DNA from: Candidatus Omnitrophota bacterium
GTDB taxonomy: Bacteria; Omnitrophota; Gorgyraeia; Zapsychrales; Zapsychraceae
Assembly: GCA_029261055.1 (NCBI GenBank)
Contig: JAJDCA010000026.1
Coordinates: forward strand, 5,747 to 69,746
Direction of reading: 5' to 3'
DNA length: 64,000 nucleotides
Shown here: positions 1-17,566 of the stretch, piece by piece
Layout of the letters: each line of letters opens with the position of its first letter
How positions within the stretch are numbered: the stretch's first letter is position 1
Notes under the pieces: generated by a model
What the model was told of the DNA's origin: nothing
What the model saw: only the letters and a program-made list of their open reading frames with translations
Databases searched by the model: none
Translations under genes and position numbers: made by a program

Positions 1-3000
1 GCACCACCGACCGCACCATTAATGCGTCGTCTACAGATTTCAACGACATCATTATTGGGGATGGCCTTATTGGCTACTGGAAGCTAGACGAAACTGCAGA
101 CGATGGAAGTTGTGACGGTACGAATGATGCGTGTGACAGTTCTGGGTATGGTAATCATGGGGAGTGGGAAAGTGCCCCGACTGCATCAACAGATACACCA
201 AAACCGTTTAAATTTACTAATACCGGAAGCTTGAATTTTAATGGAACGAGTGATTATGTGGATGTTGGGGGTATTGATGTTACAACAGCATTTACAATGG
301 GGGGGTGGGTAAAATTTGATCAATTAGGAGGTAAAAAACAAGCGTTAATAGCCAAGTCATTTAATGCTTACCAGTTGTTTGCAAGTGATAGTCTTGATCG
401 TGTATTGTTTCAAAGTAATAGTGAGACGCCAATAGCGTACACACATAGTTTTATAATCAATAACTGGTATCACATTATGTTAACGTTTAATACTACAGTT
501 GGCTATGTTTTGTATTTAGATGGAATAGCAGTTAAAAGTGATTCCACTACAACTGTTATCAATACAAATGATATTACAACTAAAATAGGCGCAACTTCAC
601 AGACTCCACAGAATTTCCTTGATGGCCTCATTGACGACGTCCGTATTTACAACCGTGCATTATCAGCTACAGAAGTGAAGGCCTTAGCGCAATCGAAAAT
701 GCTGGAGGGTAAGGAGGGGACGTACACGTTGGCGTCGGCTTTGGATGTGGATGGAGATATTACTTTGGCGGATGGGACATTGGATGTGTCGGGGACGCCG
801 TACAATATTAATGTGGCGGGGGATTGGAATAATTATTCCGGGGTGAATGGGTTTACGGCGCGGACGGCTACTGTCGATTTGGATGGGGCGCCGACGACGC
901 AGAATGTGCGGGGGTCTACCAACTTCTACAATTTCGAAATAAGCACATCCACCGCGCAGACGGTTAACTTCGAAAGCGGCGCGTCGCAGACGATTGTGGC
1001 GAATGGGTCGCTGACGTTGACGGGGGCGTCGGGGCAATTGCTTACCCTTGCACCACTTACGGCCGCTACGGATTGGTTATTGGATTTTGACGGGGCGACG
1101 CAGTCGGTGCAGTATGTGTCGGTGTCGTATTCGGATGCGAGTAATGGGACGACGATTGATGCCTCCGACGGTACGAGTACGGATGGCGGGAATACGACGA
1201 ATTGGTTTTTTGCGCAGAATATCAGCGGGACCACGAATCTCTCGAGCGGTCGCGTGAAAGTCGCGGTCAACTCCAACCTCCGCGCCTCAACCACCGACAT
1301 CTCAGGCAGTGTGTGGACCGTGAGCAGCGTGACGTACACCAGCGGCGACATCATCACCGTGTTTGTCGATGGCGAGGCCGAGTCCACCGAATCCACCGCC
1401 GTCACCAAACACGACGGCTCCGGCGCCATCACCGGCATGGTTCTTAATCAGAACGTGCTCTCCATCGGAAGCGCCGACGACCAAAGCCTGACCGGCACAA
1501 ACTTAGGCCTTTACGACAATGCCGATGACGAAGACATCATGCACATGTTCACAGCAGCGAACATCCTCACCATCGACGCTTCGGCCGCGTACACGAACGA
1601 AATGCTCGACATCCTCTCCGGCGACACGCTTACGATCGCGACCGACGAAACCTTAGAAGCCCACAACGTCAACATCAGCGGAACTTTAACGGCGACAGGC
1701 AGCGCCACGCTCCACGTATCGGGAAGCTGGACCAACGCCGGCACCTTCACCACCAACACCTCCCACATCATGTTTACCGGAACCGAGAGCGAAACCTTAA
1801 CGAGCGGCGGCACAACCTACAACGACGTCACGCTCAACGACGGGTTGGTGGGGTATTGGAAATTAGATGAGACGTCTGTAGGTTCAACAGTTGTGGATTC
1901 GTCTGGATATGGTTATGATGGAACCCCACAGGGAACAGGAGGTGGAAATAATTTACCTCAACCCAATGCGGATGTACCGCAATTAAATTTTAAAAATGTC
2001 CAGAGTTTAGATTTTGACGGAACAGATGATTATGTAGACATTTCGTCAGGATTTGTTACTAACCAATCTGCATGTTCTGTATCTTTTTGGGCGAATATTG
2101 ATAGTGGATCAGCTACCGGGCTAACTGTTTATAGTGAAGGAATTCCAAGTGCTTGGGTGAACAGTCTTTTTATTATTTATTATGGAGATACATCTGATAC
2201 TGCAACTCCATCTGTGCGTGTTTTTTTCAGGGATGCTGCTGCAGCAGGAGGAACTCTTCTTGATTCAGATACAAGTATAAATCTTGCTGATAGTTCATGG
2301 CATCATGTGGCGTATGTTCAACGAGCAAGTAATGATCGTGAGATTTACATTGATGGAATAAGTCGTGATACAGATGCAAATAATATTTCACCAATTGTTC
2401 CAACGTCCTCATCTATTGGTGCAGCCAATAATAATGGAACTTTTAGCCAATTTATTAATGGTTTGGTTGATGACGTCCGTACTTACAGCCGTGCGCTTTC
2501 GGCTGTAGAAATTGCCCGTTTGGCGGTTGGGCGTCAACCGGCAACGGGGAGTGGGACGTACACGTTGCAGGATGCATTGGATGTGAATGGGGATCTCGCG
2601 CTCAACAGCGGGACGTTGGATGTGAATACGAACAAAGCGGTGACGGTGGCGGGGAGTTGGATGAATCACGGTGGTATCCTCACCGCTGGAAGCGGCACGG
2701 TGACACTCGATGGCACAGCGACCGGTAAGACCTTGCTCTCCGGCCAACAACAATTCAACAACCTCACCGTCAACGGCACGGGTGGCGCGTGGACATTCAA
2801 CGATGATGCGACCGTCTCTGGCGCGTTGACATTGATAGACGGAACTCTGACTCATTCAACCTTGCTCGATGTCGTCACCTTCACCGGCGACTTCCCTGTA
2901 GCCAATGCCAACGCGACCTTTGCGGGGGTCGAATCCACCTTCATCATCGATGGCGACCTCAGCTTAACGGCCGGAACTTTCACCGCCCCAAGCGAAAGCC

Positions 3001-6000
3001 TCATCATCACCGGCGCCTACACCCACACCGGCGGCACCTTCTCGCATAACAGCGGAACCGTCCTAATGACAAGCACCGTGGACCGCACCATCAACGCCAC
3101 CTCCACCACCTTCAATGACATCATTATCGGCGATGGGTTGGTAGGGTATTGGAAGTTGGATGAGACGAGCACCCCAGCGGTCGACTCTAGCGGTTACGGC
3201 AACGACGGTATCTGGACAAATTCCCCCACAGCCTCCAGCGACACTCCAAAACCTTTCAAATTTGCCAACACCGGGAGTTTGGATTTTGATGGGGTAGATG
3301 ATCGAGTGGATGTAGGAGACCCGGATATTTTAGATATGGGGACAAACGATTTTACTCTAACAGCATGGGTGAAAGCAAATTCGACACAAACTGATACACA
3401 TCCAACTATTATTAATAAAGGAGGAAGTTCAGACCCAGTAGCAGGGTATTGGTTTGCTCTTACCTCGGGAACAAAATTATGGGTAGGTATTGGTGACGGC
3501 ACTAGCAGGGCTACTTTTGATGGAGCTACTGATATTAGAGATGATACATGGCATCATGTAGCTGCGGTAGTTGACCGCGATGGTAATGGGACAATCTATT
3601 TGGATGGAGCTGTTGATGGAACTCCAGATGATATTTCTTCTCATGCAACAAAAAATATTGATACTGATGTGTACGCTTTTGGAATAGGAGGGAGGGCGGG
3701 TAGCGATATTCAATTCACAGGTATAATCGATGACGTTCGTGTTTACAAGCGTGCGTTGTCAGCCGTAGAGGTGAAGGCGTTAGCCCAAGCAAAGGTATTA
3801 GAAGCCAAGGAAGGGACGTACATGTTGGCCTCGGCATTGGATGTGGATGGGGATATTACGTTGGCGGATGGCACGTTGGATGTTTCGGGGACGCCATACA
3901 ATATTAATGTGGCCGGGGATTGGAATAATTATTCTGGGGTGGATGCGTTTACGGCGCGGACGGCGACGGTGGATTTGGATGGGGCACCGACGACGCAGAA
4001 TGTACGGGGGAATACGAATTTTTACAATTTTGAAATTAGTACGTCGACCGCGCAGATAGTCAACTTCGAAAGCGGCGCGTCGCAGACGGTTGTGGCGAAT
4101 GGGTCGTTGACGTTGACGGGGGCGTCGGGACAATTGTTGACGTTGGCACCGTTGACAGCTGCCACGGATTGGTTATTGGATTTTGACGGGGCGACACAGT
4201 CGGTGCAGTATGTGTCGGTGTCGTATTCGGATGCGAGTGCGGGTACGACGATTGATGCGACGGATGGCACGAGTACGGATGGTGGTAATACGACCAATTG
4301 GTTCTTTGCGCAGAATATTAGCGGGACGACGAATTTATCGAGCGGGCGAGTGAAGGTGGCCGTCAACTCCAACCTCCGCGCTTCCACCACCGACATCTCC
4401 GGCAGTGTGTGGACCATCAGCAGTGTCACCTACACCAGCGGCGACATCATCACCGTGTTCGTCGATGGCGAAGCCGAGTCCACCGAATCCACCGCCGTCA
4501 CCAAACACGACGGAAGCGGCGCCATCACCGGTATGGTGCTTAACCAAAACGTGCTCTCGATCGGAAGCGCGGACGACCAAAGCTTGACCGGCACAAATTT
4601 AGGCCTGTACGACAATACCGATGACGAAGACATCATGCACATGTTCACGGCGGCGAACATCCTCACCATAGATGCGTCGGCCAATTACACCAACGAAATG
4701 CTCGACATCCTTTCCGGCGATACGCTTACGATCGCAACGGACGAAACCCTCGAAGCCCACAACGTCAACATCAGCGGAACCTTAACAGCGACAGGCAGCG
4801 CCACACTCCACGTCTCCGGTAGCTGGACCAACGCCGGCACCTTCACCGCCAACAGCTCGCACCTCATGTTCACCGGAACCGAAAGCGAAACCCTAACGAG
4901 CGGCAGCACAAGCTACAACGACCTCACCCTAAACGACGGCCTCGTGGGGTATTGGAAGTTGGATGAGGCAAGCGGATCGACCGCCACCGATTCCAGTGGA
5001 TATGGGAATGATGGGACGCACACCAATTCCCCGACGATATCTTCAATTGTACCTTCTGTAAATTTTGTCAATCCACGGAGTTTAGAATTTGATGGGGCAA
5101 ATAATTATGTAGAAATAATTGATACTGGAATTTGGGATTTTCAAACAGGAGAATATGCAGTTAGTTTTTGGTTTAAAACATCCGGAAGTGCTAGGGAACA
5201 TGCTCTTCATTTTGGAAGTCTCAGTGCTAATAATCTTGATTTTGATTTTAATGATGGAGGTTATGGAATTTGGGTTTATTGGATGAGCGGAGGAGGTAAC
5301 TATGTGCGTACAACAGATTTTTATAATGATGGATCTTGGCATCATTTAGTAGTTTCTCGAAATTCCTCAGGGACGACTTTATATGTGGATAATATTGTTA
5401 AAGATCAAGATTCCGGTTTAGATAATATTGATATTGCAAGTAATGGACTTATTGGGTCGGCAATTGGAGATCATTATTGGGATGGTTTTCTTGACGATGT
5501 TCGTATTTACAACCGTGAGCTGTCAACTACGGAAGTCGCCCGCCTAGCCGCAGGCCGACAGCCGGCGACGGGGAGTGGGACGTACACGTTGCAGGATGCG
5601 TTGGATGTGAATGGGGATTTGGCGCTGAACAGTGGGACGTTGGATGTGAATACGAACAAGGCGGTGACGGTCGCCGGGAGTTGGATGAATCATGGGGGTA
5701 TCCTTACCGCCGGCAGTGGGACGGTGACACTCGACGGCACGGCGTCCGGCAAGACATTGCTCTCCGGTCAACAACAATTCAACAACCTCACCGTCAACGG
5801 CACAGGCGGCGAATGGACGTTCAATGATGACGCGACCGTCTCCGGTACGTTGACACTTACAGACGGAACACTGACACACTCAACGTTATTGGACGTCGTC
5901 ACCTTCACCGGCGACTTCCCGGTAGCGAATGCCAACGCGACCTTTACGGGCGTCGAATCCACCTTCATCATCGACGGCGACCTCAGCCTCACGGCAGGAA

Positions 6001-7388
6001 CCTTCACCGCCCCAAGCGAGAGCCTGATTATCACCGGCGCTTACACCCACACCGGCGGCACCTTCAGCCACAATAGCGGAACAGTCCTCATGACCAGCAC
6101 CACCGACCGCACGATCAACGCCACCTCCACCACCTACAACGACCTCATTATCGGGGATGGCTTGGTAGGATACTGGAAACTGGATGAAACCACTGGCAGC
6201 ACTGCCACCGACTCCAGTGGCTACGGTAACAATGGTACGTGGACAAATTCTCCGACAGCTTCTACCGACACCCCCAAACCCTTCAAATTCACCAACACCT
6301 GGAGTTTGAGTTTTGATGGGACGGATGATTATGTGGATATGGGAGATGTTTTGGAAATGACAGAAGCTAACGGAATAACCTTGTCTGCCTGGGTAAATGC
6401 AAGTAGTTTAACAGCGAATGGAGCGGTTATTGATAAATTAGGGGGTAACGGTAATTATAGGCTTCAAGTAAATGCTTCTGGTCAGGTTCGTTTTGGGATA
6501 CGAGATGCAGTAAGTTCTTACGAGGAGATGCTCACCACAGATACTTTATCAACTAATCGATGGTATCACCTTGCAGCAACTTTTGATGATGTGACAACTG
6601 GTAAAATTTATATTGATGGAGAGCTTAAAAAGACAAAAACAGATTTTACTCTTACACGAGGTGATACAGCTGATTCTTTAAAGATAGGATACACTTCGAA
6701 TAATGCTCAATATTTTAATGCTAAAATTGATGACGTCCGCATCTACAATCGTGCGCTTTCGGCATCTGAGGTAAGTGCACTTGCACAATCAAAGGTGTTG
6801 GAAGCCAAGGAAGGGACATACACATTGGCATCGGCGTTGGATGTGGATGGGGATATTACGTTGGCGGATGGGACGCTGGATGTTTCGGCGACGCCGTACA
6901 ACATCAACGTCGCCGGCGACTGGAATAATTATTCCGGGGTGAATGCCTTTACCGCTCGCACCGCAACCGTTGACCTGGATGGGGCGCCGACGACGCAGAA
7001 TGTTCGCGGGTCGACGAATTTTTACAATTTTGAAATCAGCACGTCCACCGCGCAGACCGTCAACTTCGAAAGCGGTGCGTCGCAGACAATCCTTACTAAC
7101 GGATCGTTGACACTCACCGGTGCTGCAAGCAATCTTTTAACGCTTGCCCCATTGACAGCCGCCACGGATTGGTTGCTCGACCTTTCTTCCGGCGCGTCGC
7201 AGTCGGTGTCGTATGTGTCGGTATCGTATTCGGATGCGAGTGCGGGGGCGACGATTTTGGCGAATGATGGGACGAACACGGATGGGGGGAATACGAACAA
7301 TTGGCGGTTCAGGGCATTGCTAATTATGCCGATTTTGGTGAGTTTTGTGGGGTTTGGTGTATGGAGACGCCATTTATGGCGTCTCTGA
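1..7388 (+). CDS. Giant repetitive surface protein, 5'-truncated by the window edge. Tandem LamG/concanavalin-like jelly-roll domains are separated by two alternating conserved linker types
   Basis: Frame 3 is open from nt 3 (TTDRTINASSTDFNDIIIGDGLIGYWKLDE...) to the stop at 7386-7388. The LamG hallmark LVGYWKLDE ... WHH ... DDVRIYNRALSAxEV recurs at about nt 70, 1846, 3133, 4936 and 6160. A hydrophobic stretch ALLIMPILVSFVGFGV and a basic tail end the protein. Confidence 0.85.
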   Translation, partial: TTDRTINASSTDFNDIIIGDGLIGYWKLDETADDGSCDGTNDACDSSGYGNHGEWESAPTASTDTPKPFKFTNTGSLNFNGTSDYVDVGGIDVTTAFTMGGWVKFDQLGGKKQALIAKSFNAYQLFASDSLDRVLFQSNSETPIAYTHSFIINNWYHIMLTFNTTVGYVLYLDGIAVKSDSTTTVINTNDITTKIGATSQTPQNFLDGLIDDVRIYNRALSATEVKALAQSKMLEGKEGTYTLASALDVDGDITLADGTLDVSGTPYNINVAGDWNNYSGVNGFTARTATVDLDGAPTTQNVRGSTNFYNFEISTSTAQTVNFESGASQTIVANGSLTLTGASGQLLTLAPLTAATDWLLDFDGATQSVQYVSVSYSDASNGTTIDASDGTSTDGGNTTNWFFAQNISGTTNLSSGRVKVAVNSNLRASTTDISGSVWTVSSVTYTSGDIITVFVDGEAESTESTAVTKHDGSGAITGMVLNQNVLSIGSADDQSLTGTNLGLYDNADDEDIMHMFTAANILTIDASAAYTNEMLDILSGDTLTIATDETLEAHNVNISGTLTATGSATLHVSGSWTNAGTFTTNTSHIMFTGTESETLTSGGTTYNDVTLNDGLVGYWKLDETSVGSTVVDSSGYGYDGTPQGTGGGNNLPQPNADVPQLNFKNVQSLDFDGTDDYVDISSGFVTNQSACSVSFWANIDSGSATGLTVYSEGIPSAWVNSLFIIYYGDTSDTATPSVRVFFRDAAAAGGTLLDSDTSINLADSSWHHVAYVQRASNDREIYIDGISRDTDANNISPIVPTSSSIGAANNNGTFSQFINGLVDDVRTYSRALSAVEIARLAVGRQPATGSGTYTLQDALDVNGDLALNSGTLDVNTNKAVTVAGSWMNHGGILTAGSGTVTLDGTATGKTLLSGQQQFNNLTVNGTGGAWTFNDDATVSGALTLIDGTLTHSTLLDVVTFTGDFPVANANATFAGVESTFIIDGDLSLTAGTFTAPSESLIITGAYTHTGGTFSHNSGTVLMTSTVDRTINATSTTFNDIIIGDGLVGYWKLDETSTPAVDSSGYGNDGIWTNSPTASSDTPKPFKFANTGSLDFDGVDDRVDVGDPDILDMGTNDFTLTAWVKANSTQTDTHPTIINKGGSSDPVAGYWFALTSGTKLWVGIGDGTSRATFDGATDIRDDTWHHVAAVVDRDGNGTIYLDGAVDGTPDDISSHATKNIDTDVYAFGIGGRAGSDIQFTGIIDDVRVYKRALSAVEVKALAQAKVLEAKEGTYMLASALDVDGDITLADGTLDVSGTPYNINVAGDWNNYSGVDAFTARTATVDLDGAPTTQNVRGNTNFYNFEISTSTAQIVNFESGASQTVVANGSLTLTGASGQLLTLAPLTAATDWLLDFDGATQSVQYVSVSYSDASAGTTIDATDGTSTDGGNTTNWFFAQNISGTTNLSSGRVKVAVNSNLRASTTDISGSVWTISSVTYTSGDIITVFVDGEAESTESTAVTKHDGSGAITGMVLNQNVLSIGSADDQSLTGTNLGLYDNTDDEDIMHMFTAANILTIDASANYTNEMLDILSGDTLTIATDETLEAHNVNISGTLTATGSATLHVSGSWTNAGTFTANSSHLMFTGTESETLTSGSTSYNDLTLNDGLVGYWKLDEASGSTATDSSGYGNDGTHTNSPTISSIVPSVNFVNPRSLEFDGANNYVEIIDTGIWDFQTGEYAVSFWFKTSGSAREHALHFGSLSANNLDFDFNDGGYGIWVYWMSGGGNYVRTTDFYNDGSWHHLVVSRNSSGTTLYVDNIVKDQDSGLDNIDIASNGLIGSAIGDHYWDGFLDDVRIYNRELSTTEVARLAAGRQPATGSGTYTLQDALDVNGDLALNSGTLDVNTNKAVTVAGSWMNHGGILTAGSGTVTLDGTASGKTLLSGQQQFNNLTVNGTGGEWTFNDDATVSGTLTLTDGTLTHSTLLDVVTFTGDFPVANANATFTGVESTFIIDGDLSLTAGTFTAPSESLIITGAYTHTGGTFSHNSGTVLMTSTTDRTINATSTTYNDLIIGDGLVGYWKLDETTGSTATDSSGYGNNGTWTNSPTASTDTPKPFKFTNTWSLSFDGTDDYVDMGDVLEMTEANGITLSAWVNASSLTANGAVIDKLGGNGNYRLQVNASGQVRFGIRDAVSSYEEMLTTDTLSTNRWYHLAATFDDVTTGKIYIDGELKKTKTDFTLTRGDTADSLKIGYTSNNAQYFNAKIDDVRIYNRALSASEVSALAQSKVLEAKEGTYTLASALDVDGDITLADGTLDVSATPYNINVAGDWNNYSGVNAFTARTATVDLDGAPTTQNVRGSTNFYNFEISTSTAQTVNFESGASQTILTNGSLTLTGAASNLLTLAPLTAATDWLLDLSSGASQSVSYVSVSYSDASAGATILANDGTNTDGGNTNNWRFRALLIMPILVSFVGFGVWRRHLWRL
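7364..7385. repeat. REP-like 22-nt palindrome GAGACGCCAT-TT-ATGGCGTCTC (10-bp arms), forming the last codons and stop of the giant gene
   Basis: Perfect inverted repeat read directly. The same sequence recurs at 7943-7964 and 17545-17566, and in inverse orientation (loop AA) at 7716-7758 and 7894-7919. Confidence 0.8.
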
Positions 7389-7408
7389 TCAAATATACGG
7401 AATCATAA

Positions 7409-8124
7409 TGCCACAAAAATATAAAGGGAAATACCGAATAAAATCAATCAGGATACCTAATTATGATTATTCATCCAATGGAGCCTATTTCGTCACCATT
7501 TGTGTTCGGGATGGCAGACATTTTTTTGGAGAAATATTAGAAGGGAAGATAAAATTATCAGAATATGGAAAGATAGCCACAAAATATTGGCATGAAATTT
7601 TAGATCGTTTTTCATTTGTCATCGCGGATGAATTTATTGTCATGCCAAACCATGTGCATGGGATTATTGTTATTGATGCTTCAGGGCAGAGGAAAAAGGA
7701 TTTGATAAATTATGGAGACGCCATAAATGGTGGAGACGCCATAAATGGCGTCTGTACGTTGGGGGGAGGGATGACGGGGAAGCATAATCCGATGTTGTCG
7801 TCGCATTCATTGTCGAAGATTGTGCGGTGGTACAAAGGACGTGTTACGTATGAGATACGAAAGATACAGAATTATGGAGACGCCATAAATCGCGGAGACG
7901 CCATAAATGGCGTCTGTACGAAGGGAACATCGGAATACGTAAAGACGCCATTTATGGCGTCTCCAATCAAAAGAGACGCGATTCATCGCGTCTCTGTTTG
8001 TAGGTTTCAATGGCATCCTCGGTTCCACGATCACATTATCCGCAATGAACAATCCTTACGCGAAATCCGTCAATACATTCGGGATAATCCTATGAAATGG
8101 GATGATGATCCGGAGAATATGTAG
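7409..8124 (+). CDS. REP-associated tyrosine transposase (RAYT; IS200/IS605 TnpA-like Y1 HuH transposase) with in-frame REP-derived insertions
   Basis: N-terminal block IRIPNYDYSSNGAYFVTICVRDGRHFFG, HuH motif MPNHVHGIIV, and C-terminal block RFHDHIIRNEQSLREIRQYIRDNPMKW with the catalytic-Tyr context. Compare E. coli RayT, which has HMHCIW ... RFWEHAIRN ... YIYINPVKHGW. The likely start is ATG 7409, not the track's 7345; nt 7345-7408 translate a REP (GDAIYGVS). Confidence 0.75.
7716..7758. repeat. Tandem REP copies (GGAGACGCCATAAATGG + TGGAGACGCCATAAATGGCGTCTG) inside the RAYT ORF; they translate as GDAINGGDAINGVCT
   Basis: Direct reading. Same palindrome family as 7364-7385, in the opposite orientation. 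Confidence 0.75.
7876..7995. repeat. Cluster of REP copies and variants inside the RAYT ORF (7876-7890 half site, 7894-7919, 7943-7964, variant AGAGACGCGAT-TC-ATCGCGTCTCT at 7972-7995)
   Basis: Direct reading. They translate as GDAINRGDAINGVCT ... TPFMASPIKRDAIHRVS. Confidence 0.7.
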
Positions 8125-8127
8125 CCA

Positions 8128-9717
8128 TTATTCCTTCACCAAATTATTCTCTAACTTCGCTGCAATGCGTAGGGTTGAGAGGAATTGGCTGAAGGCTTTG
8201 TTTTTTTGTTCGGTGAGGAGTTTTTCGGATAAGGCGTCTTTTTCTTTGGCATAGGCATCATTATCTACGGGGACGTAGGCGTCGCGATGTAGGATGCAGT
8301 AGCCATTAGCGGTTTTGACAACTTCACTAATAGGGGCTTCTTCGTTTAGGGTAAAGGCAGCATCCTGGAATTCTTTGGATATGCCGATCTTGGGTAAATA
8401 TTGGCCGCGGTTAAATTCGGGTGTCTGGTGAATTTCGAGGCCTAACGTTTTGGCGGCACCAGGGAAGTCTTTGAGTTTGGTTTTGTTGACTTCTTCTTGA
8501 ATAGCGGTGAGATAGGTCTCAGCCTTAGTGCCTGCTAAGGTTTCAGCTTCTTTGTTGGCTACAGCCTGACGGACATCTTCTTTTATTTCTTCAAATTCGG
8601 GGACATAAGCTTCTTTTTTTTCAGTTAATTTTACGATATGCAGGCCATTGTCTGATTCATAAGGTTCGGCGATTGCGTTTGTGTCCATATCAAAGAGGGT
8701 TTTGAGGAGGTCGTAAGACCATCCTAGGCTCAAATTAGGTTGTTCCATACTAAAAAATCCACTGGATTGCATTTTAAGGTTATTTTTTGCGCTAATTTCG
8801 TGCAAGTCAGGATTGAGCAGTAGTTCTTGATAAATGGTATAAGCCGTACTGCGCACGGTATCTTTTTCTTCTTCAATTTTATCCGCTTTAGCCTTTGCCT
8901 CTGCTTCAGCTTTTTCAGTTTCTTCTGTTTTTTCACTACTTTCTTCACTTTTTTCACCATCACTCGTTTCTGTTGTTTCGGTGTCTTGCAAAAGCGAAGG
9001 CTCCGGCTCTGGAAAGTAAAAGCTGACGTAGTCTACATTCACTGCTGGGGGTGTTAGGAATTCGAGTTTATTGTCTGCGTAGTATTTTGTTTTTTGTTCT
9101 TCTGTTACAGTGACTTCATTTTGAAACTGTGTCGGGTCAACAAAAACATAACTGATTTGAATTTTTTCATTTTGTTTTTTGTAGTTTTCAAAGATGTCTT
9201 CATCCGCCACCGTTTCGCCACTGGAGACTTGTTCAAAGAGTTTGTTTATTTTTAAAGAATCACGAAGGCTTTCTTCAAATTCCCGGGGTTTGATGCGGAA
9301 AACAAATTTGAGGATGTCGTTGTACAAAAGCGTATCAAATTTATCATCCCGTTGGAAAAATGCGTATTGTTCAATGGATTTGATGAGTTCTTCATTAGAA
9401 ATTTTAATTTTTTGTTTTTTGACTTCACGCATGAGTATCAGTCGATCCCAGGCTTCAGATTCAAGGTTTAAGAATTGTTTAATATTTTTAAAGTTATCGC
9501 CATAACGCATGATAGCTTGAATTTCGGTGCTTTTAAAACTTTTGCGGTAATCATCAAAAGCAATTTTTTTGCCGAAAATTTTTCCGGCATATCCTTGTTG
9601 GTTGTTATCCGTTAAAAGATAGGCTGTACCAAAAAGTCCAAAAGACAGGATGATCACAATAGCAACAGCCCAGATGAGCTTTTTCATAACACCTTTTTTA
9701 CGTAATAATTTAAGCAT
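8128..9717 (-). CDS. Periplasmic chaperone / peptidyl-prolyl isomerase, PpiD/SurA-like. It has an N-terminal TM anchor and an acidic low-complexity linker
   Basis: The N-terminus MKKLIWAVAIVIILSFGLFGTAYLL is a signal anchor. The region also has a SurA-N-like helical segment, a C-terminal rotamase-like segment (ANGYCILHRDAYVP) and an acidic E/K/T-rich tract. Confidence 0.5.
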   Translation of the reverse strand: MLKLLRKKGVMKKLIWAVAIVIILSFGLFGTAYLLTDNNQQGYAGKIFGKKIAFDDYRKSFKSTEIQAIMRYGDNFKNIKQFLNLESEAWDRLILMREVKKQKIKISNEELIKSIEQYAFFQRDDKFDTLLYNDILKFVFRIKPREFEESLRDSLKINKLFEQVSSGETVADEDIFENYKKQNEKIQISYVFVDPTQFQNEVTVTEEQKTKYYADNKLEFLTPPAVNVDYVSFYFPEPEPSLLQDTETTETSDGEKSEESSEKTEETEKAEAEAKAKADKIEEEKDTVRSTAYTIYQELLLNPDLHEISAKNNLKMQSSGFFSMEQPNLSLGWSYDLLKTLFDMDTNAIAEPYESDNGLHIVKLTEKKEAYVPEFEEIKEDVRQAVANKEAETLAGTKAETYLTAIQEEVNKTKLKDFPGAAKTLGLEIHQTPEFNRGQYLPKIGISKEFQDAAFTLNEEAPISEVVKTANGYCILHRDAYVPVDNDAYAKEKDALSEKLLTEQKNKAFSQFLSTLRIAAKLENNLVKE

Positions 9718-9842
9718 GGGGTCTCCTTAATTAGACGGTAAATATTTGAGAGGGATTATATCTTCCAAATAAAATTTTGACAAGGAGAATTCGTAAAGAC
9801 TCGTGTAAAGGGGTAATGAGTGTGGAGATAATATAAATTCAA

Positions 9843-9918
9843 TTAGGGGCGTGATGAATCATGCCCGTACGGCGGGTGTGTTATTCGTAGGGGCATAATT
9901 TATTATGCCCATGGTTCA
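9843..9918. repeat. Pair of GTAG-headed GGGC...GCCC palindromic hairpins (GGGCGTGATGAATCATGCCC; GGGCATAATTTATTATGCCC) in the divergent ppiD-like/hisG intergenic region
   Basis: Inverted repeats read directly. The first copy is about 25/28 identical to a coding segment at 62476-62503. Confidence 0.5.
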
Positions 9919-10057
9919 TTTAAAAAAATTGGCAAAATGCTTGATTTAGTTTTATACTTTGTATTGGAAAGATAAAATATCTGCTTTACAAATATGCATG
10001 GGATGGATATAATGCCGCTCTTTGATAACCGCACGCATGTGCAAACAAGAGAATGCT

Positions 10058-10933
10058 ATGAAAAAACTCAAATTTGGTTTACCTAAGGGAAGTCTGCAGG
10101 ACGCGACAATTCGGGTGTTTAAGCGCGCGGGATTTAAGATTTATGTCTCAGGGCGGTCGTATTTTCCTACGATTGATGATGTGGAAATCGAACCGGTTCT
10201 TTTAAGAGCCCAGGAGATGTCCCGTTATGTAGAAGAAGGCGCTTTGGATTGTGGTATTACCGGTGCTGATTGGGTGCTGGAGAATCGTTCGAAAGTCGTT
10301 TCTTTGGCTGATTTGGTTTATGCCAAACAAACTTCAGTCAAAGTTCGGTGGGTTTTGGCGGTACCGGAAAAATCATCCATCAAATCGGTTAAAGATTTAA
10401 GCGGTAAAAAAATTGCAACCGAAGTCGTTAATGTGACACAGGAATATTTAAAGAAGAATAAGGTTAAGGCCGATGTGGAGTTCAGTTGGGGTGCTACAGA
10501 GGCAAAGGTGGCGGATGGCTTGGTCGATGCGATTGTGGAGCTGACCGAGACTGGAAGCAGCTTGCGGGCGCATAAGTTGCGTATCATTTCAACTATTTGT
10601 GAGTCCACAACGCAGTTTATCGCTAGCCGACAAGCTGTTAAAGATGCATGGAAAAAGCGCAAAATGGATCAAATTGCCATGCTTCTGAAGGGGGCCATTC
10701 AGGCCAATAATATGGTTGGGTTAAAGATGAATATAGAAGAGAAGAATCTTGATAAAGTTTTAGATCTATTGACGTCTCTGAAAGACCCCACAATATCAAA
10801 TTTGAGTCGTTCAAATTGGCTAGCTGTTGAGACCGTTATTGATGAAAGCATTGTGAGGACGCTTATCCCTAATTTAAAAAGTGCTGGTGCACAGGGGATT
10901 ATTGAGTATCCGTTGAATAAATTGATTTATTAA
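10058..10933 (+). CDS. hisG: ATP phosphoribosyltransferase, long form (catalytic plus C-terminal regulatory domain)
   Basis: [14 protein letters not shown] ... DCGITGADW ... and a C-terminal ACT-like domain. The start is probably ATG 10058 (the track begins at TTG 10022). Confidence 0.7.
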
Positions 10934-10966
10934 ACCGTTATTAATAGTAATAGGAAAAAGTAACAT

Positions 10967-11068
10967 ATGCCGTGTGGTAAAAAGAGAAAAAATCGAAAAA
11001 TTAGAACACATAAGCGTAAAAAATTAAGAAAATCTTTAAGACATCTTAAGAAACGCAAGACGCGATAA
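10967..11068 (+). CDS. Putative 33-aa highly basic peptide (MPCGKKRKNRKIRTHKRKKLRKSLRHLKKRKTR)
   Basis: An ATG is preceded by AGGAAAAAG; the small ORF lies between hisG and the TPR gene. It is below the ORF-track length cutoff. A ribosomal-protein-like or nucleic-acid-binding role is speculative. Confidence 0.3.
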   Translation: MPCGKKRKNRKIRTHKRKKLRKSLRHLKKRKTR

Positions 11069-11114
11069 GTGGGGGCGCAGGCCGTGCGCTCGTACATAAT
11101 AAAAAGGCAAAGCA

Positions 11115-12125
11115 ATGATATTAAGAAACATAAAAATTTCATTTTGTCTTGTTGTCCTCGTGGCCGGACTGCTCAATGCAGGCCGTGCAGAGGCCTTTTT
11201 CTATCAAAGTAATGTTTCGACTTCTAAAGCTTTAGCGCATTATTCTATGGGGCAGCGTTATGATTTTCTCGGCATGCCGGGAAAAGCAGCCCAAGAATAT
11301 AAATTGGCGATACAGTTTGATAAAGCCAGCTACATGACCCATTTAAGACTTGGGGTTGATTATGTGCGGCTGGGGATGCTTACCGAAGCTGTCGAAGAGT
11401 TTCAACTCGTTAAGAACTACAATCCTGAAGATCTGCAGTCACACTATTTTTTAGCACTCATCTATTCCTCCATAAAAGATTACGATAAAGCTGTCGCCGA
11501 GTATGAATACATTTTAAAAACATACACGAAGGTGGATCCGGAGAATATTGACGTATATGCTCAGCTGGGACAATTATATTATTTGCAGAAAAAATATGAT
11601 GAAGCTGTTCAGCAATACGAAAAGGTTCTTATGATGGATCCGAAAAATGTGGATGTTATGTATCTGGTCGGATCCATTTATTGGGAAGTCGGTCAGAAGC
11701 GCAAGGCTATTAATACGTTGGAGGGTGCTGTAGAGGAATCCCCCGAGCATGCCGGCAGTTTAAACACTCTGGGCTATTTTTATGCCGAAGTTAATGAACA
11801 GCTTGATAAAGCGGTGGATTTGATAATGCGCGCTCTTAAAATCAGCCCTGATAACGGAGGTTATCTCGATAGTTTAGGGTGGGTTTATTACAAAAAAGGT
11901 AGGTATAGTAAGGCATTGGAATTTCTTAAAAAAGCCGATGCGTTACTTAAGGATCCGGTGATTGCAGAGCATATTGGCGATGTTTATTACAAAATGGAAC
12001 GTATGGAAGAGGCTGCTGAATATTGGGGGCAATCTTTGGAACTTTTACCTAATCAGCAAGAAGTTATCGAAAAATTAAATTCTTTAAAGAAATTTCAAAC
12101 CAGTAAGGCCTTAAGCGAAAAATAG
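11115..12125 (+). CDS. Secreted tetratricopeptide-repeat (TPR) protein
   Basis: Signal peptide MILRNIKISFCLVVLVAGLLNAGRAEA, followed by multiple 34-aa TPR-like repeats (AxxYxLAL..Y.KAV..Y). Confidence 0.75.
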   Translation: MILRNIKISFCLVVLVAGLLNAGRAEAFFYQSNVSTSKALAHYSMGQRYDFLGMPGKAAQEYKLAIQFDKASYMTHLRLGVDYVRLGMLTEAVEEFQLVKNYNPEDLQSHYFLALIYSSIKDYDKAVAEYEYILKTYTKVDPENIDVYAQLGQLYYLQKKYDEAVQQYEKVLMMDPKNVDVMYLVGSIYWEVGQKRKAINTLEGAVEESPEHAGSLNTLGYFYAEVNEQLDKAVDLIMRALKISPDNGGYLDSLGWVYYKKGRYSKALEFLKKADALLKDPVIAEHIGDVYYKMERMEEAAEYWGQSLELLPNQQEVIEKLNSLKKFQTSKALSEK

Positions 12126-12161
12126 CTTCCTTAGTTCTTATGACACGTTAGACTGCCTGTA

Positions 12162-13043
12162 ATGCCGAAAATTTCTCTTCTATCACCTGCCAAACTCAAT
12201 CTTTATCTTAAAGTCCTTAATAAGCGACCCGATGGGTTTCATGATATTGTCACTTTATTTGAGCGTATTGATCTATGTGATGAAATATCCATAAGTTCAA
12301 ATACCCATAAAAATGGCGATATTCGTATTTATTGTGATCATCCCCAGGTGCCTTTAGGTCCTAAAAACTTGGTCCATCAGGCGACGCGTTTGATACAACA
12401 GTCTACCGGCATTCAAAAAGGGGTAGAAATTAAGATTAAAAAGCGTATTCCCGTTGCGGCGGGTTTAGCGGGAGGGTCCAGTAACGCGGCAACGGTTCTT
12501 TTGGGGCTTAATCAGATTTGGAAATTAGGGTTAAGCAGGCAAAAATTGGTGTCGTATGCCCAGAAGCTCGGGAGTGATGTTGCATTTTTCTTGTATGATG
12601 CTCCATTTGGTTTAGGCACAGGTCGAGGGGAGAAAATCAAGAAATTTAATGTTAAAACAGAATTATGGCATGTTGTGATTGTGCCGCGAATTAAGATGTA
12701 TTCATGGAAGGTTTACGGCGAGCTTTCACTAATAGGGCGCAGCAAATTGCAGTTGACAAAAATACACGATAATGTTAACATCCTGCTCCATTATTTGAAG
12801 CAAAATGATCTTTTTGCTTTGGCACGTATGGTAGACAATGATTTAGAACCTGTAGTGGTAGGTCTATGTCCGAAAATTCTAAAGTTACAAAAGCGACTAA
12901 AGTCATTGAATGCTAAAGGAGTTATGATATCTGGCAGTGGACCAAGCGTATTTGGCACCTTTGAAAACGAACAGGAAGCCAAGCAAGTTTGTTCCATCAT
13001 GCAACGGACTTATTCACAAGTATATGTTGTGAAAAATTCATAA
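12162..13043 (+). CDS. ispE: 4-diphosphocytidyl-2-C-methyl-D-erythritol kinase
   Basis: PAKLNLYLKV ... RPDGFH and the GHMP kinase motif PVAAGLAGGSSNAA. Confidence 0.85.
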   Translation: MPKISLLSPAKLNLYLKVLNKRPDGFHDIVTLFERIDLCDEISISSNTHKNGDIRIYCDHPQVPLGPKNLVHQATRLIQQSTGIQKGVEIKIKKRIPVAAGLAGGSSNAATVLLGLNQIWKLGLSRQKLVSYAQKLGSDVAFFLYDAPFGLGTGRGEKIKKFNVKTELWHVVIVPRIKMYSWKVYGELSLIGRSKLQLTKIHDNVNILLHYLKQNDLFALARMVDNDLEPVVVGLCPKILKLQKRLKSLNAKGVMISGSGPSVFGTFENEQEAKQVCSIMQRTYSQVYVVKNS

Positions 13044-13047
13044 ATTT

Positions 13048-13121
13048 TGCCCGGTAGTGTAATGGTAACACACGAGAATTTGGATCTCGTTTTCCAGGTT
13101 CGAGTCCTGGCTGGGCAGCCA
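13048..13121 (+). tRNA. tRNA-Gln (anticodon UUG)
   Basis: Cloverleaf folded by hand. Acceptor TGCCCGG/CTGGGCA with U1-A72, D-arm GTGT/ACAC, anticodon stem CGAGA/TCTCG with loop ATTTGGA, T-arm CCAGG-TTCGAGT-CCTGG, discriminator G and an encoded CCA. Confidence 0.85.
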
Positions 13122-13200
13122 ATTTTTAATTAAGAGATTGGCCAAAAAAATTATTCTGCCAATCTCCAAAGCGGGTTTAATTTTCCAAGGTAGTTTATTT

Positions 13201-14460
13201 ATGCAAGAACTGAATACTATAATTTTAGCGGCAGGAAAAGGGACCCGGATGAAATCTGACACGCCTAAGGTGCTTCATCAGGTGTGTGGTAAACCTATGT
13301 TGCAATATGTGTTGGATATCTCTAAATCTGTGGGATCTTTAAAGACATGTGTTGTTCTTGGACATAAATGTGATTCAGTGAAAGATTTTTTATCTAAAGA
13401 TTTTCTTACGGTTGAGCAGAAAAAGTTGTTGGGTACGGCTGATGCGGTGAAATGTACAGAAAAATATTTTAAGAATCATAAAGGTAATGTTTTAATTCTT
13501 TGCGGCGACACCCCTTTGTTGAACAAATCGGTTATTAAAAATATTGTCAAACGGCATAAAAAACGCGAAGCGGTTTGCACATTTTTAACAGCGGTTGTCC
13601 ATAATCCAGAAGGGTATGGCCGAATTATTCGTGATGAAAGTGGAAAAGTTGTCGCGATACGTGAAGATAACGATGCTGTCGGGCTTGAGCGGGATCTTGC
13701 TGAAATTAATGTTGGTGTATATTGTTTCAAAGCGCAGGAATTGTTTAAGGCCTTGAAAGAAATTAAAATTAATAAAAAGAAAAAAGAATTTTATCTTACG
13801 GATATTATTGAATTATTTTATGAAAAACAATTTAAGATAGAAACAATTGAGACTGAAAATCCTTCTGAGGGGTTAGGTATTAATACAAGAGAAGGTTTAG
13901 CTGAAGCCGAGGCTATCCTTCGTCGTAAAATATTGAAACGATTTATGTCCGATGGCGTAACGATTATGGATCCACAAACGGTTTATATTGACTCCGAGGT
14001 GAAAATTGGTCGAGACACGATTATTAAACCTTTTACGTTTATTGAAAAAAATGTGAAGGTTGGTGCACGTTGCTCGATAGGCCCATTTGCGCGGCTTCGT
14101 TCGGGTGCCAGAATAGAGGATGATGTAGAGATAGGTAATTTTACTGAAATATCCCGAACTAAAATAGGCAAACGCAGTATGATGAAACATTTTAGTTATC
14201 TGGGGGATGCTGACGTTGGAAGTGATGTTAATATTGGAGCAGGCGCCATTACTGCAAACTTTGACGGGGTGGAAAAGAATTTAACCAAAATATCAGATGG
14301 GGCTTTTATCGGCTGTGATTCCATTATGATCGCACCGGTAAAAATTGGAAAACAAGCGATTGTCGGTGCTGGAAGTGTTGTAAGTAAGAAAAAAAATGTT
14401 CCGGATTACAGCGTTGCTGTTGGAGCTCCGGCGAGAATCATATCAAAAAGGAAGGCTTAG
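13201..14460 (+). CDS. glmU: Bifunctional UDP-N-acetylglucosamine pyrophosphorylase / glucosamine-1-phosphate N-acetyltransferase
   Basis: N-terminal LAAGKGTRMKSDTPKVLH; C-terminal left-handed beta-helix hexapeptide repeats. ATG 13201 is preferred over the track start 13138. Confidence 0.85.
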   Translation: MQELNTIILAAGKGTRMKSDTPKVLHQVCGKPMLQYVLDISKSVGSLKTCVVLGHKCDSVKDFLSKDFLTVEQKKLLGTADAVKCTEKYFKNHKGNVLILCGDTPLLNKSVIKNIVKRHKKREAVCTFLTAVVHNPEGYGRIIRDESGKVVAIREDNDAVGLERDLAEINVGVYCFKAQELFKALKEIKINKKKKEFYLTDIIELFYEKQFKIETIETENPSEGLGINTREGLAEAEAILRRKILKRFMSDGVTIMDPQTVYIDSEVKIGRDTIIKPFTFIEKNVKVGARCSIGPFARLRSGARIEDDVEIGNFTEISRTKIGKRSMMKHFSYLGDADVGSDVNIGAGAITANFDGVEKNLTKISDGAFIGCDSIMIAPVKIGKQAIVGAGSVVSKKKNVPDYSVAVGAPARIISKRKA

Positions 14461-14463
14461 AAT

Positions 14464-15414
14464 ATGAAGGGTTTAGCTGTACTTACAGGAAATGCACATC
14501 CGCATTTAGCAAAAGATATTTGTTCAGTTTTGGGTATTCCGTTGATAGATGTTTTAGCTTCGCGATTTAGTGAAGGTGAAATTCGTGTTGAGATTAAAGA
14601 AAATATTCGCGGAAAAGATGTTTTTATTATTCAGCCTACCTGCCCCCCCACTAATGATAATTTGATGGAATTGCTGATTTTGATTGATGCTGCGCGGCGT
14701 GCTTCAGCTCAAAGGATTACGGCGGTTGTTCCGTATTATGGGTATGCTCGTCAGGATCGTAAAGATCAACCACGCGTGCCGATTACGGCAAAATTGGTAG
14801 CTAATTTGATTGTGGCGGCCGGCGCTCAAAGAGTACTCACCATGGATTTACATGCGAATCAGATTCAGGGGTTTTTTGATATTCCTGTGGATCATTTGTA
14901 CGGCATTAATCCTCTTTGTGAATATTTTAATAATAAAAAATTAGAAAATTTAGTTGTTGTGTCACCGGATGTCGGTGGAATTAAAATGGCCCGAGCTTAT
15001 GCCGGTCGGTTGGGGGCTGGGTTGGCCATTGTTGATAAGCGTCGCGATAATCCTGAGGAAACCGAAGTGATGCATATTCTTGGGGAAGTAGAAGGTAAAA
15101 ATGCTATTCTCGTTGATGATATTGTGGCCACAGCGGGATCTTTAATTAATGCTGTTGGAGCGTTAAAAGAAAAAGGCGTAAAAGATGTTTATGCTGCGAT
15201 TAGCCATGGTATTCTTTCGGGCAGTGCTATCAATCGTTTAAAAAAATGTCCTGCGCTTAAAGAATTGGTTATTACGGATAGCATCCCTTTAGAGGATTCG
15301 AAAAAGATTTCTAATATAAAGGTGGTAACAACGGCTAATTTATTGGCGGAAGCTATTCAACGTATTCATGATGAAGAGTCAATAAGTTGTTTATTTGATA
15401 AAGTAAAAGCGTAA
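14464..15414 (+). CDS. prs: Ribose-phosphate pyrophosphokinase
   Basis: Contains the PRPP-binding VDDIVATAGS and NLIVAAGA; conserved position after glmU. Confidence 0.9.
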   Translation: MKGLAVLTGNAHPHLAKDICSVLGIPLIDVLASRFSEGEIRVEIKENIRGKDVFIIQPTCPPTNDNLMELLILIDAARRASAQRITAVVPYYGYARQDRKDQPRVPITAKLVANLIVAAGAQRVLTMDLHANQIQGFFDIPVDHLYGINPLCEYFNNKKLENLVVVSPDVGGIKMARAYAGRLGAGLAIVDKRRDNPEETEVMHILGEVEGKNAILVDDIVATAGSLINAVGALKEKGVKDVYAAISHGILSGSAINRLKKCPALKELVITDSIPLEDSKKISNIKVVTTANLLAEAIQRIHDEESISCLFDKVKA

Positions 15415-15440
15415 CTACAATTAATGGGAGTTTATGAAAA

Positions 15441-16136
15441 ATGGAAGAGATAAAATTAGATGTTCAGATTAGAAATCAAATTGGAAGGCGAAAAGTAAAA
15501 GTTGTTCGTCAAGAAAATTTTATACCGGCTATTGTGTACGGCGGAGAAAGAAAAGAGCCGACTGCGATTAAGGTTGACCGGAGATCTTATGAGAAAATCA
15601 TGCGTGTTCATAAGGGGGAAAGCGTTGTTTTTCATCTTAGTGTGATGGAGAATGATAAAAAATTAAGGGATTATGCTGCAATTGTTAAAGAAGAACAGCA
15701 TCATCCTGTGAGCGAGTCCTTATTGCATATTGATTTTAACCGTATTTCTTTGACGAAAGAAATTGAGGTGAAGGTTCCAGTTATTCCACGAGGAGAAGCT
15801 ATTGGGGTTAAGAAAGATGGCGGTTCGTTAGATTCTCCGTTACGAGAATTAGATATTGTATGTTTGCCGACAAATATTCCAGCTAATATAGAGATTGATA
15901 TTAGTGCTTTAAATATCGGCGATGTGATTCATGTTAAAGATATTGTTTTGCCTGAAAATGTTAAGACAAATCATGATCCTGAGTCTATTGTGGTTTCTGT
16001 GGTTCCTTCTATGAAAGAGGAAGCTGCCGAACCTGTCGGTGAGGTTGGTCCAGAGGAGCCTGAAGTTATAAAAGAGAAGAAAGAAAAAGAAGTGACAGCA
16101 GAAAAAGAATCAGGAAAGAATGCAGAGGAGAAATAA
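15441..16136 (+). CDS. rplY: 50S ribosomal protein L25 / general stress protein Ctc
   Basis: RGKGGARRLR-like N-terminus (GRRKVKVVRQENFIPAIVYGG) and an acidic/K-rich C-terminal tail; prs-ctc-pth order. Confidence 0.8.
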   Translation: MEEIKLDVQIRNQIGRRKVKVVRQENFIPAIVYGGERKEPTAIKVDRRSYEKIMRVHKGESVVFHLSVMENDKKLRDYAAIVKEEQHHPVSESLLHIDFNRISLTKEIEVKVPVIPRGEAIGVKKDGGSLDSPLRELDIVCLPTNIPANIEIDISALNIGDVIHVKDIVLPENVKTNHDPESIVVSVVPSMKEEAAEPVGEVGPEEPEVIKEKKEKEVTAEKESGKNAEEK

Positions 16137-16728
16137 ATTAATTGTTGGACTTGGGAATCCTGGAAAAGATTATGAGTATACAAGGCATAATCTTGGGTTT
16201 TTAGTTGTACGGCAATTAGCAGATCGCATTAATGCTTCCTTTCGATTGAGTTCTTTCACAAATGGTTTGGTGGCAGAAGGCCAAGCTAAATATAGAAATT
16301 TAAATTTATTATTGCCGCTGACGTATATGAATAATTCCGGCGTGGCTGTTAAATCTGTTATAGCTAAAAAGCAATTGGCTATTGAAAATATTTTGGTTGT
16401 ATGTGATGATTTAAATTTAAATTTTGGTCAATTACGTTTAAAGCAAAAAGGACGTGATGGAGGTCACAATGGTTTGAAGTCTATCATGCGTCATCTCGAT
16501 TCAAACCAATTTGCGCGATTGCGGATGGGAATTATTGGAGATACGAATTGTGGCACAGCGCAGGCAGTTAAAAATCGAGATACGACGGACTTTGTTTTAG
16601 GGGAATTCACAAAACAGGAAAGTAAGCAGTTAGAAAACTTTATTAGCAGGGCTGTAGATTGTTGTCTTGTATGGCAGCAAGAAGGTACTACGAAAGCCAT
16701 GTCAGAATTTAATGGTAAGGGAACTTAA
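16120..16728 (+). CDS. pth: Peptidyl-tRNA hydrolase
   Basis: LIVGLGNPGKDYEYTRHNLGF ... HNGLKS. Confidence 0.85.
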   Translation: MQRRNKLIVGLGNPGKDYEYTRHNLGFLVVRQLADRINASFRLSSFTNGLVAEGQAKYRNLNLLLPLTYMNNSGVAVKSVIAKKQLAIENILVVCDDLNLNFGQLRLKQKGRDGGHNGLKSIMRHLDSNQFARLRMGIIGDTNCGTAQAVKNRDTTDFVLGEFTKQESKQLENFISRAVDCCLVWQQEGTTKAMSEFNGKGT

Positions 16729-16742
16729 TCAAAGGAAAGAAA

Positions 16743-17048
16743 ATGGAAAACACACTAATACTTAGAAAATATGAATTGATGTTTATTGTTGATGCACAAT
16801 TAACAAATGAGGACAAGGAAGATGTTCGTAAAGTTGTCGTCGAAATTATAAAAAAAGGAGGTGGTAAGGTCATTAATAGTCAGGTATGGCAGGAAAAGCA
16901 TAAATTTACTTTTCCAATTAAAAAGCTCAATGAAGGAGCTTATTTTATTATTAATTTTGAAGGAGAAGGTGATTGTATTGAAAAAATACAGCCAATATTG
17001 AAACTTAACGAAAAGGTTCTTCGGTTTATGACTAAGAAGGTTGATTAA
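16743..17048 (+). CDS. rpsF: 30S ribosomal protein S6
   Basis: YELMFIVDAQL ... and rpsF-ssb-rpsR synteny. Confidence 0.8.
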   Translation: MENTLILRKYELMFIVDAQLTNEDKEDVRKVVVEIIKKGGGKVINSQVWQEKHKFTFPIKKLNEGAYFIINFEGEGDCIEKIQPILKLNEKVLRFMTKKVD

Positions 17049-17538: not shown

Positions 17539-17544
17539 AACATA

Positions 17545-17566
17545 GAGACGCCATTTATGGCGTCTC
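17545..17566. repeat. REP palindrome GAGACGCCATTTATGGCGTCTC between ssb and rpsR
   Basis: Identical 22-mer to 7364-7385. Confidence 0.8.

Follow-up and report, generated by a model that had tools for sequence, protein, structure and literature searches.

In-frame copies of a dispersed REP palindrome in the gene for a REP-associated tyrosine transposase from an uncultured Omnitrophota bacterium

We analyzed a 64-kb stretch of DNA from a Candidatus Omnitrophota bacterium (GenBank assembly GCA_029261055.1, contig JAJDCA010000026.1, positions 5,747 to 69,746 of the forward strand), hereafter the window, which was taken at its whole length and to which all coordinates below refer. On its + strand lies a gene for a REP-associated tyrosine transposase (RAYT, or TnpA_REP; REP, repetitive extragenic palindrome), and copies of a REP palindrome are embedded in frame in the coding sequence of this gene. 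An earlier reading of the letters alone (the sequence-only reading) had placed the open reading frame (ORF) at 7345-8124. The ORF listing showed the + strand frame to be open throughout this span, but homologues begin at the position equivalent to the ATG at 7408 (MPQKYKGKYRI in the alignment), so we took this codon as the likely gene start. The gene, assigned from the ORF, the homologue alignment, Pfam Y1_Tnp, NCBIfam REP_Tyr_transpos and the structure 4er8, thus probably extends from 7408 to the stop at 8124 and encodes 238 amino acids (aa).

The catalytic motifs of the family are in place. The HuH motif NHVH occupies aa 81-84 (7648-7659), the conserved W202 (8011-8013) precedes the block RFHDHIIRN, and the codon of the catalytic Tyr223 (8074-8076) lies within YIRDNP. 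In an alignment of 29 sequences, the window RAYT kept 32 of the 32 invariant columns, including H82, H84, W202 and Y223-I224-N227-P228, and its frame of 238 codons runs uninterrupted across six palindromic units. The HuH motif, RFHDHIIRN and the catalytic Tyr, hallmarks named by the sequence-only reading, were recovered, and the loss of HuH and Tyr on proper alignment, which that reading had named as an outcome that would speak against it, was not seen. The window RAYT is an intact HuH/Tyr REP-associated tyrosine transposase.

Homology and structure searches agreed with this assignment. A protein search returned 2477 homologues, the top ones with E values from 9e-57 to 1e-46, and several of them are named REP element-mobilizing transposase RayT in their source. 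When a profile of the family was compared with the PDB, it matched 4er8 (E = 3.8e-6) over both the HuH block and the W..RF..IRN..YI.NP block, and 4er8 was also matched by a single-sequence search with the window RAYT. The AlphaFold model has a mean predicted local distance difference test score (pLDDT) of 73, with a core at about 90 or higher. In it, beta3 spans aa 82-89, alphaC 135-166, beta4 207-211 and the Tyr helix 214-230. The top Foldseek match of this predicted fold was 4er8_A, the E. coli TnpAREP-REP complex, followed by the IS608 and ISDra2 TnpA proteins. Matches to the Pfam family PF01797 (Y1_Tnp) are precomputed for many homologues. The comparison with this family that the sequence-only reading had proposed gave 22.5 bits for the window RAYT as it stands and 24.5 bits after deletion of both REP-coded inserts, the gathering threshold being 23. 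Removal of the inserts thus carries the score across the threshold, showing that they depress the scores of curated models.

The palindrome, AGACGCCATWWATGGCGTCT, is present in full in four copies within the RAYT ORF, one copy upstream of it and one between ssb and rpsR. When the window was searched with the pattern GAGACGCCATWWATGGCGTCTC, allowing up to 3 mismatches and with 100 shuffles as control, we found six matches (7364, 7733, 7895, 7942, 7973 and 17545) against 0 expected. Half copies lie at 7715-7730 and 7877-7894, and the stems of the local hairpins are perfect over 9-11 bp. The upstream copy (7364..7385) is a perfect hairpin with a 10-bp stem and a TT loop, located 22 nt 5' of the RAYT start codon, with the foot ATGG and not GTAG. 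The other perfect extragenic copy (17545..17566, foot ATAG) begins 6 nt past the ssb stop and ends 38 nt ahead of rpsR. Both had been pointed out by the sequence-only reading. Within 1000 nt on either side of the gene, REP is visible on the upstream flank only, and no downstream copy occurs within 1 kb. Since the homologues begin where ATG 7408 lies in the alignment, the 7364 copy most likely stands upstream of the gene, and its GDAIYG reading most likely remains untranslated.

The same upstream copy overlaps a giant ORF (231-7388) of at least 2385 aa with long internal repeats, for instance 630-1871 and 3726-4967, which are 88% identical. The last eight codons (WRRHLWRL) and the stop of this ORF come from the REP at 7364-7385, so its 3' end has been reshaped by the REP.

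The in-gene copies form two arrays. Site 1 (7708..7758, aa 101-117, NYGDAINGGDAINGVCT) falls in the beta3-alphaC loop and contains an exact tandem duplication of 18 nt, or 6 codons (7713-7730 = 7731-7748), which ends in one full hairpin (7733-7754, foot GTAC). Site 2 (7867..7998, aa 154-197) falls in the alphaC-beta4 loop. Its first palindromic units are a half copy (7877-7894) and a full hairpin (7895-7916, foot GTAC); an inverted full hairpin (7942-7963, foot GTAA) follows after a 17-nt spacer, and then a diverged hairpin (7973-7994) with a GCGATTCATCGC stem. The beginning of site 2 (7870..7925) is a 56-nt direct repeat of 7708-7763, 93% identical overall and 96% over 51 nt, and it includes the non-palindromic flank AATTATGG; this first part of site 2 is a recent copy of the site-1 block. 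Site 2 also holds a REPIN-like inverted pair (7894..7964), made of two 27-nt arms (7894-7920 and 7938-7964) that are 96% complementary and 17 nt apart. When folded as single-stranded DNA, the 7700-8000 segment reached -76.9 kcal/mol (z = -10.2).

These arrays lie close to the insert spans given by the sequence-only reading (7701-7770 and 7871-7998), and, as it had stated, they sit between the conserved RAYT blocks, both between HuH and Y, in a frame that stays open. Its description of both as tandem copies holds for the 18-nt duplication of site 1 but not for site 2, which is composed of a 56-nt block copy, an inverted copy and a diverged copy. Likewise, the palindrome is indeed translated in frame, but not only into the GDAING/GDAIYG peptides that it had listed: two frames are used in the window RAYT, reading DAINGVC / DAIHRVS in one and KTPFMAS in the other.

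Both inserts sit in surface loops: they coincide with gaps or a variable region in the alignment and with pLDDT values below 50 in the model. Opposite site 2, 23 of the 28 homologues have gaps; site 1 coincides with the variable beta3-alphaC stretch of the family, where most homologues bear a REP-coded peptide of their own. The residues with pLDDT below 50 (aa 96-118 and most of 168-195) match the REP-coded stretches. The mapping to loops that the sequence-only reading had asked to be checked was thus obtained, and the inserts did not align to conserved residues. REP insertions in loop 2 were also seen in the alignment in five otherwise normal homologues (P0010, P0032, P0052, P0060 and P0106).

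The 20-mer core of the palindrome was also scanned in one genome per species. It was found at no fewer than 117 loci, none of which matched the window by megablast, in many phyla, including Planctomycetales, Omnitrophota, Bacteroidota, groups of the candidate phyla radiation (CPR), Nostoc and Fischerella. The following counts hold among the matches listed. In each of three metagenome-assembled genomes (MAGs), the 20-mer was dispersed over 10 or more contigs. Copies were oriented by the asymmetry of their loop and the four bases 5' of the stem were scored: a GTAG foot was present in about 60 of 68 orientable copies (~88%), with the individual bases G, T, A and G each found in 60-63 of 68, and the copies with a symmetric loop bear GTAG...CTAC. 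For 127 of 134 copies, no RAYT homologue occurred in the same block (up to 8 kb), and 102 of the 134, about three quarters, were not deep within long ORFs. In these genomes, the palindrome is therefore a genuine dispersed REP of the GTAG type. In two Planctomycetales MAGs, RAYT homologues with 33-37% identity to the window RAYT (L002 4688-5362 and L009 13-1744) were observed to have the identical 20-mer REP inside the gene as well as in the flanking DNA, and the GTAG feet of these copies are perfect. The pairing of the window RAYT with the palindrome as its presumed cognate is one that we infer from their association.

We then compared the in-gene repeats across the family, using 80 metagenomic homologue loci and the 120 closest homologue proteins. 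An in-gene hairpin was defined as a perfect palindrome whose stem is 8 bp or longer, and hairpins were assigned to loops by alignment-based mapping. A hairpin was present in 71 of the 80 loci and missing from 9, and in 64 of 73 genes it lay between HuH and Y. Loop 1 carried one in 65 of 80 genes, loop 2 in just 2 of 80, the window RAYT being one of the two. REP-coded peptides were found in 104 of the 120 closest proteins, with a maximum of 3 per protein; the load of the window RAYT, 4 full and 2 half units, is above that of any of them. The typical in-gene element is GTAGAGAC-xxxxxx..xxxxxx-GTCTCTAC, in which GTAGAGAC...GTCTCTAC, the double foot together with the outer stem, is constant and the inner stems vary from gene to gene, each of them a perfect palindrome. 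In 27 of 58 loci the inner core of the in-gene hairpin also occurred in the same locus outside that gene, compared to 3.0 ± 1.6 when loci were permuted. All three codon phases are represented among the hairpin starts (33, 27 and 17 cases). Strict positional anchoring of the loop-1 hairpin was considered and rejected, as its distance to the conserved block varies (interquartile range [IQR], 8-20 aa). Because the repeat occurs in three phases, has inner stems that vary yet remain palindromic and matches extragenic copies, it is no peptide motif but an element at the level of the DNA, one that follows the REP population around it.

In-frame REPs in such genes have been described before. Quentin, Siguier, Chandler and Fichant (2018; BMC Genomics 19:475; PMC6006769) defined the TnpA_Y1 subclass 2.4, equal to group 4 of Bertels, by the motifs NH[IFV]H (HuH), WQ (W motif) and YIxNNP (Y motif), a median length of 194 aa and a beta3-alphaC insertion variable in length and sequence. 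The REPs of this subclass are of a "long" or "double foot" GT[AG]G type. The subclass itself is distributed patchily across phyla, and its hallmark is tnpAREP genes that contain REPs in frame in the interval from HuH to Y (PMC6006769). For subclass 2.4, Table S1 of that paper includes REPs such as GTAGAGACGCAC...GTGCGTCTCTAC, and it contains both REP types of the window, GTAGAGACGC... and GTAGGGGC... (PMC6006769). The authors judged the in-gene REPs "probably neutral" (PMC6006769), and our literature search turned up no subsequent study of what the in-gene REP copies do. The core of the sequence-only reading, a RAYT frame with in-frame copies of a flanking REP, is upheld by the fold, the alignment and the dispersed 20-mer, but its view that in-gene REPs are unusual must be given up, as they are a published hallmark of the subclass and occur in 71 of 80 homologue loci.

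The window RAYT resembles subclass 2.4 in its NHVH motif (within NH[IFV]H), its conserved W and its Y-I-x-x-N-P motif, in a site 1 that is the variable beta3-alphaC insertion, and in REPs that lie in frame between HuH and Y. The GTAG-AGAC... and GTAG-GGGC... types of the subclass have their counterparts in the window REPs. It departs from the subclass consensus in having WH and not WQ and YIRDNP and not YIxNNP, both of which are minority variants in the family: W202 is followed by His, a variation on the consensus W motif that does not amount to its loss, with WH counts of 4 among 120 homologues and 2 among 60. Asp takes the fourth position of YIRDNP in 6 of the 113 motif matches from the 120 homologues and in 15 of 76 from the metagenome set. 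The HuH motif was NHVH or NHIH in 71 of 81 homologue motif matches. Unlike the subclass norm, the alphaC-beta4 site is heavily loaded, the total of REP units in the gene exceeds that of each of the 120 homologues, the feet of the six window copies are not GT[AG]G, and REP is visible on one flank of the gene only. We also considered a link between WH and non-GTAG feet, and dropped it because VCT readings (GTAC foot) occur in WQ homologues too.

Three other systems offer comparisons. E. coli TnpAREP (subclass 2.2; PDB 4ER8) shares with the window RAYT the fold, the catalytic architecture and the HuH and W..RF..IRN..YI.NP blocks, and both are single-copy genes tied to GTAG-footed REP hairpins, the feet in the window being non-canonical; the two proteins are only about 15% identical, the E. 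coli gene has no internal REP, and its REPs, unlike those of the window, are bulged long hairpins on both gene flanks. The TnpA proteins of the IS200/IS605 family (IS608, ISDra2) have the same HuH/Tyr single-strand transposase fold and recognize subterminal DNA hairpins, but IS608 and ISDra2 are multicopy insertion sequences with hairpins at the element ends and a Y-x-x-x-Q motif, whereas the window RAYT is single in the window, has YIxxNP, and its hairpins are dispersed and inside the ORF. In-frame REPs in other genes were reported by Di Nocera et al. (2013; PMC3733652), and these intragenic REPs, like the Rickettsia palindromic elements, are short in-frame palindromes, often dimers encoding 20-30 aa, presumed to lie in loops (PMC3733652). 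Here, in contrast, the host gene is that of the presumed mobilizing transposase, and the insertion recurs across a whole enzyme subclass.

Altogether, we consider it highly probable that the window gene is a RAYT of TnpA_Y1 subclass 2.4 of Quentin et al. 2018 (Bertels group 4) with REP hairpins copied into, or maintained in, its own coding sequence. What the data show directly is the enzyme family and its fold, intact catalytic residues, inserts that sit in loops, a repeat of DNA-level nature, and the recurrence of this repeat throughout the family alongside matching extragenic copies. The partner REP would be a GTAG-type hairpin with the core AGACGCC-AT-WW-AT-GGCGTCT that acts at the DNA level. 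The enzyme would recognize it in its single-stranded, folded form and, if it works like E. coli TnpAREP, cut beside the 5' foot; structural analogy to 4er8 suggests that the window RAYT may bind and cleave such single-stranded REP. REP copies would have entered, or stayed in, the coding sequence of the RAYT itself, surviving solely in two tolerant surface loops, beta3-alphaC and alphaC-beta4, where selection would keep just those arrangements that are free of stops and have a total length that is a multiple of three. The loop-1 REP would be the one shared across the family, lengthened by slippage that duplicated 18 nt, since the tandem repeat at site 1 is a clear slippage signature. The loop-2 cluster would be secondary and fairly recent, beginning with the 56-nt copy of the loop-1 block and continuing with an inverted REP and, beyond it, a diverged REP of greater age. 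The copies may have been made by the enzyme itself, by gene conversion from extragenic copies or by replication slippage. That the window RAYT is active, that it acts on the local REP and by which of these routes the copies were inserted are parts of the picture that we infer.

Several results weigh against this interpretation. Canonical GT[AG]G feet were found in 0 of the 6 window copies, whose feet are ATGG, ATAG, GTAC, GTAC, GTAA and AAAG, and W202 is followed by His at the position where E. coli TnpAREP has Q95, a Gln that contacts GTAG. Because of this WH in place of WQ and the non-canonical feet, the present activity of the window RAYT on the local REP copies appears doubtful; the degenerate feet and WH could reflect either a shifted specificity or a fossil family. 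The window has just two extragenic copies of the palindrome in 64 kb, so a high copy number in the source genome can only be presumed. With the NCBIfam equivalog NF047646, the protein scored 46.9 bits with its inserts and 50.6 without them, below the cutoff of 80, so it is related to the E. coli-type equivalog but lies outside it. The exact protein, whether read from 7408 or from 7345, was not in the protein collection, where the neighboring proteins are found; the gene may have gone uncalled or been handled as a pseudogene. Finally, two contigs of an independent Logan assembly of the same genome (SRR15505515) are 100% identical to the window over 7934-13154 and 13153-25094, and the break at 7934 falls within the array, between two REP copies. 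For the part of the array left of 7934, the MAG assembly alone thus vouches for how many units there are and in what order. Such a break is as expected for short-read assembly at a repeat.

The in-gene hairpins might instead be functional cis elements, through which the RAYT autoregulates via its own gene or mRNA, or a heritable "seed" that founds REP populations after horizontal transfer. The stems are perfect in 71 of 80 genes despite the coding constraints, the hairpin lies in the same loop in 65 of 80, the in-gene stems follow the local extragenic copies (27 of 58 loci, with about 3 expected), the fold of the region is very strong (z = -10.2), and the identical 20-mer in unrelated phyla fits co-transfer of enzyme and substrate. 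However, gene conversion from extragenic copies would equally keep the stems perfect and matching, flanking REPs could travel with the gene just as well, and 9 of 80 homologues have no perfect hairpin. Moreover, the hairpin varies in position within the loop and in frame, and so does its spacing from the conserved block (IQR, 8-20 aa), a pattern more like repeated insertion or indels in a permissive loop than a fixed operator. We consider such a role unlikely.

A second alternative is that the window RAYT is a decaying, inactive copy littered with REP debris. Its 4 full and 2 half units, compared to a maximum of 3 in the 120 closest homologues, would fit decay, as would the Q-to-H change at the GTAG-contacting position with degenerate feet on all REPs, the absence from the protein collection, and a 44-aa insert in the alphaC-beta4 loop, which is near the REP-recognition region in other subclasses (PMC6006769). 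Yet the 238-codon frame is intact across six palindromic units, 32 of 32 invariant residues are kept, among them those of HuH, W and Y, the core is modeled with pLDDT of about 90 or higher, and loop-2 REPs are also found in the otherwise normal homologues P0010, P0032, P0052, P0060 and P0106, so that decay seems improbable to us. The cis or seed role and decay are both compatible with a subclass 2.4 RAYT that carries REP copies in its own gene. A GDAING-type tandem peptide selected for protein function, with palindromy incidental, is highly improbable: RDAINRVST is very common at the same place and the frame-1 reading occurs in 93 of 120 homologues, but this proposal is effectively refuted by the second-frame reading (ETRxIAS, KTPFMAS) in 16 of 120 homologues and the window RAYT, by hairpin starts in three codon phases and by identical copies outside genes, to which are added inner stems that change yet stay palindromic, giving unrelated peptides, and the predicted disorder of the stretches.

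Other repeats were observed in the window. A second REP class, GTAG-GGGYDTRAT-nn-ATYAHRCCC, gave 8 matches in the 64 kb against 0 expected, with perfect GTAG feet, at three sites (9843-9910, 37597-37651 and 62443-62497). One site is an intergenic pair 1.7 kb downstream of the RAYT gene. The other two are inverted pairs in frame in two paralogous giant ORFs, where they encode VDRRGLIHQTQDKGMINHAPTD and ADRRGLIHQTQEKGVMNHAPTD. These paralogous genes, at 36888-44075 (2395 aa) and from 61775 to the window end, where the second runs off, are about 75% identical over their first 1 kb and carry the in-frame REP pair at the same position. No second RAYT gene that could own the second REP class was found in the 64-kb window.

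Two longer repeats were also present. An 81-nt repeat (19662-19742 and 61600-61680, 85% identical) with a 9-10 bp hairpin (ACAGGAAAGT...ACTTTCCTGT) lies between dnaB and a bamA-like gene and, in its other copy, upstream of the second giant gene; it had no Rfam match, and the Rfam scan of the window returned one tRNA only. A 74-nt repeat (25066-25139 and 58752-58825, 98.6% identical) begins with a 9-bp hairpin (GGAATTTCT...AGAAATTCC), and the end of a Logan contig coincides with its first copy.

The window RAYT is a fresh and unusually loaded example, from an uncultured genome, of a phenomenon known since 2018. It differs from its relatives in degree, by its REP load, its rarely occupied second loop, its degenerate feet and its WH. 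Its inserts lower its Pfam and NCBIfam scores, which lie below the cutoffs, and break short-read assemblies, so REP-laden RAYT genes appear to be easily missed or misannotated. It seems quite unlikely to us that the in-gene REP is a selected part of the system, either a self-carried seed that moves enzyme and substrate between phyla or an operator or attenuator by which the RAYT senses its own hairpin. If this were true, the window RAYT would show the enzyme caught while it acts on its own coding sequence or recombines with it: both loops are occupied, the ORF contains a REPIN-like inverted pair, and the 56-nt copy within the gene is fresh. For the family, the in-gene hairpin is near universal in the subclass, is read in three frames, varies in its inner stem yet remains a perfect palindrome, and matches extragenic copies nearby, which bears on the view that such copies are "probably neutral", and these comparative counts sharpen the question of why the substrate hairpin is nearly always kept inside the enzyme's own gene.

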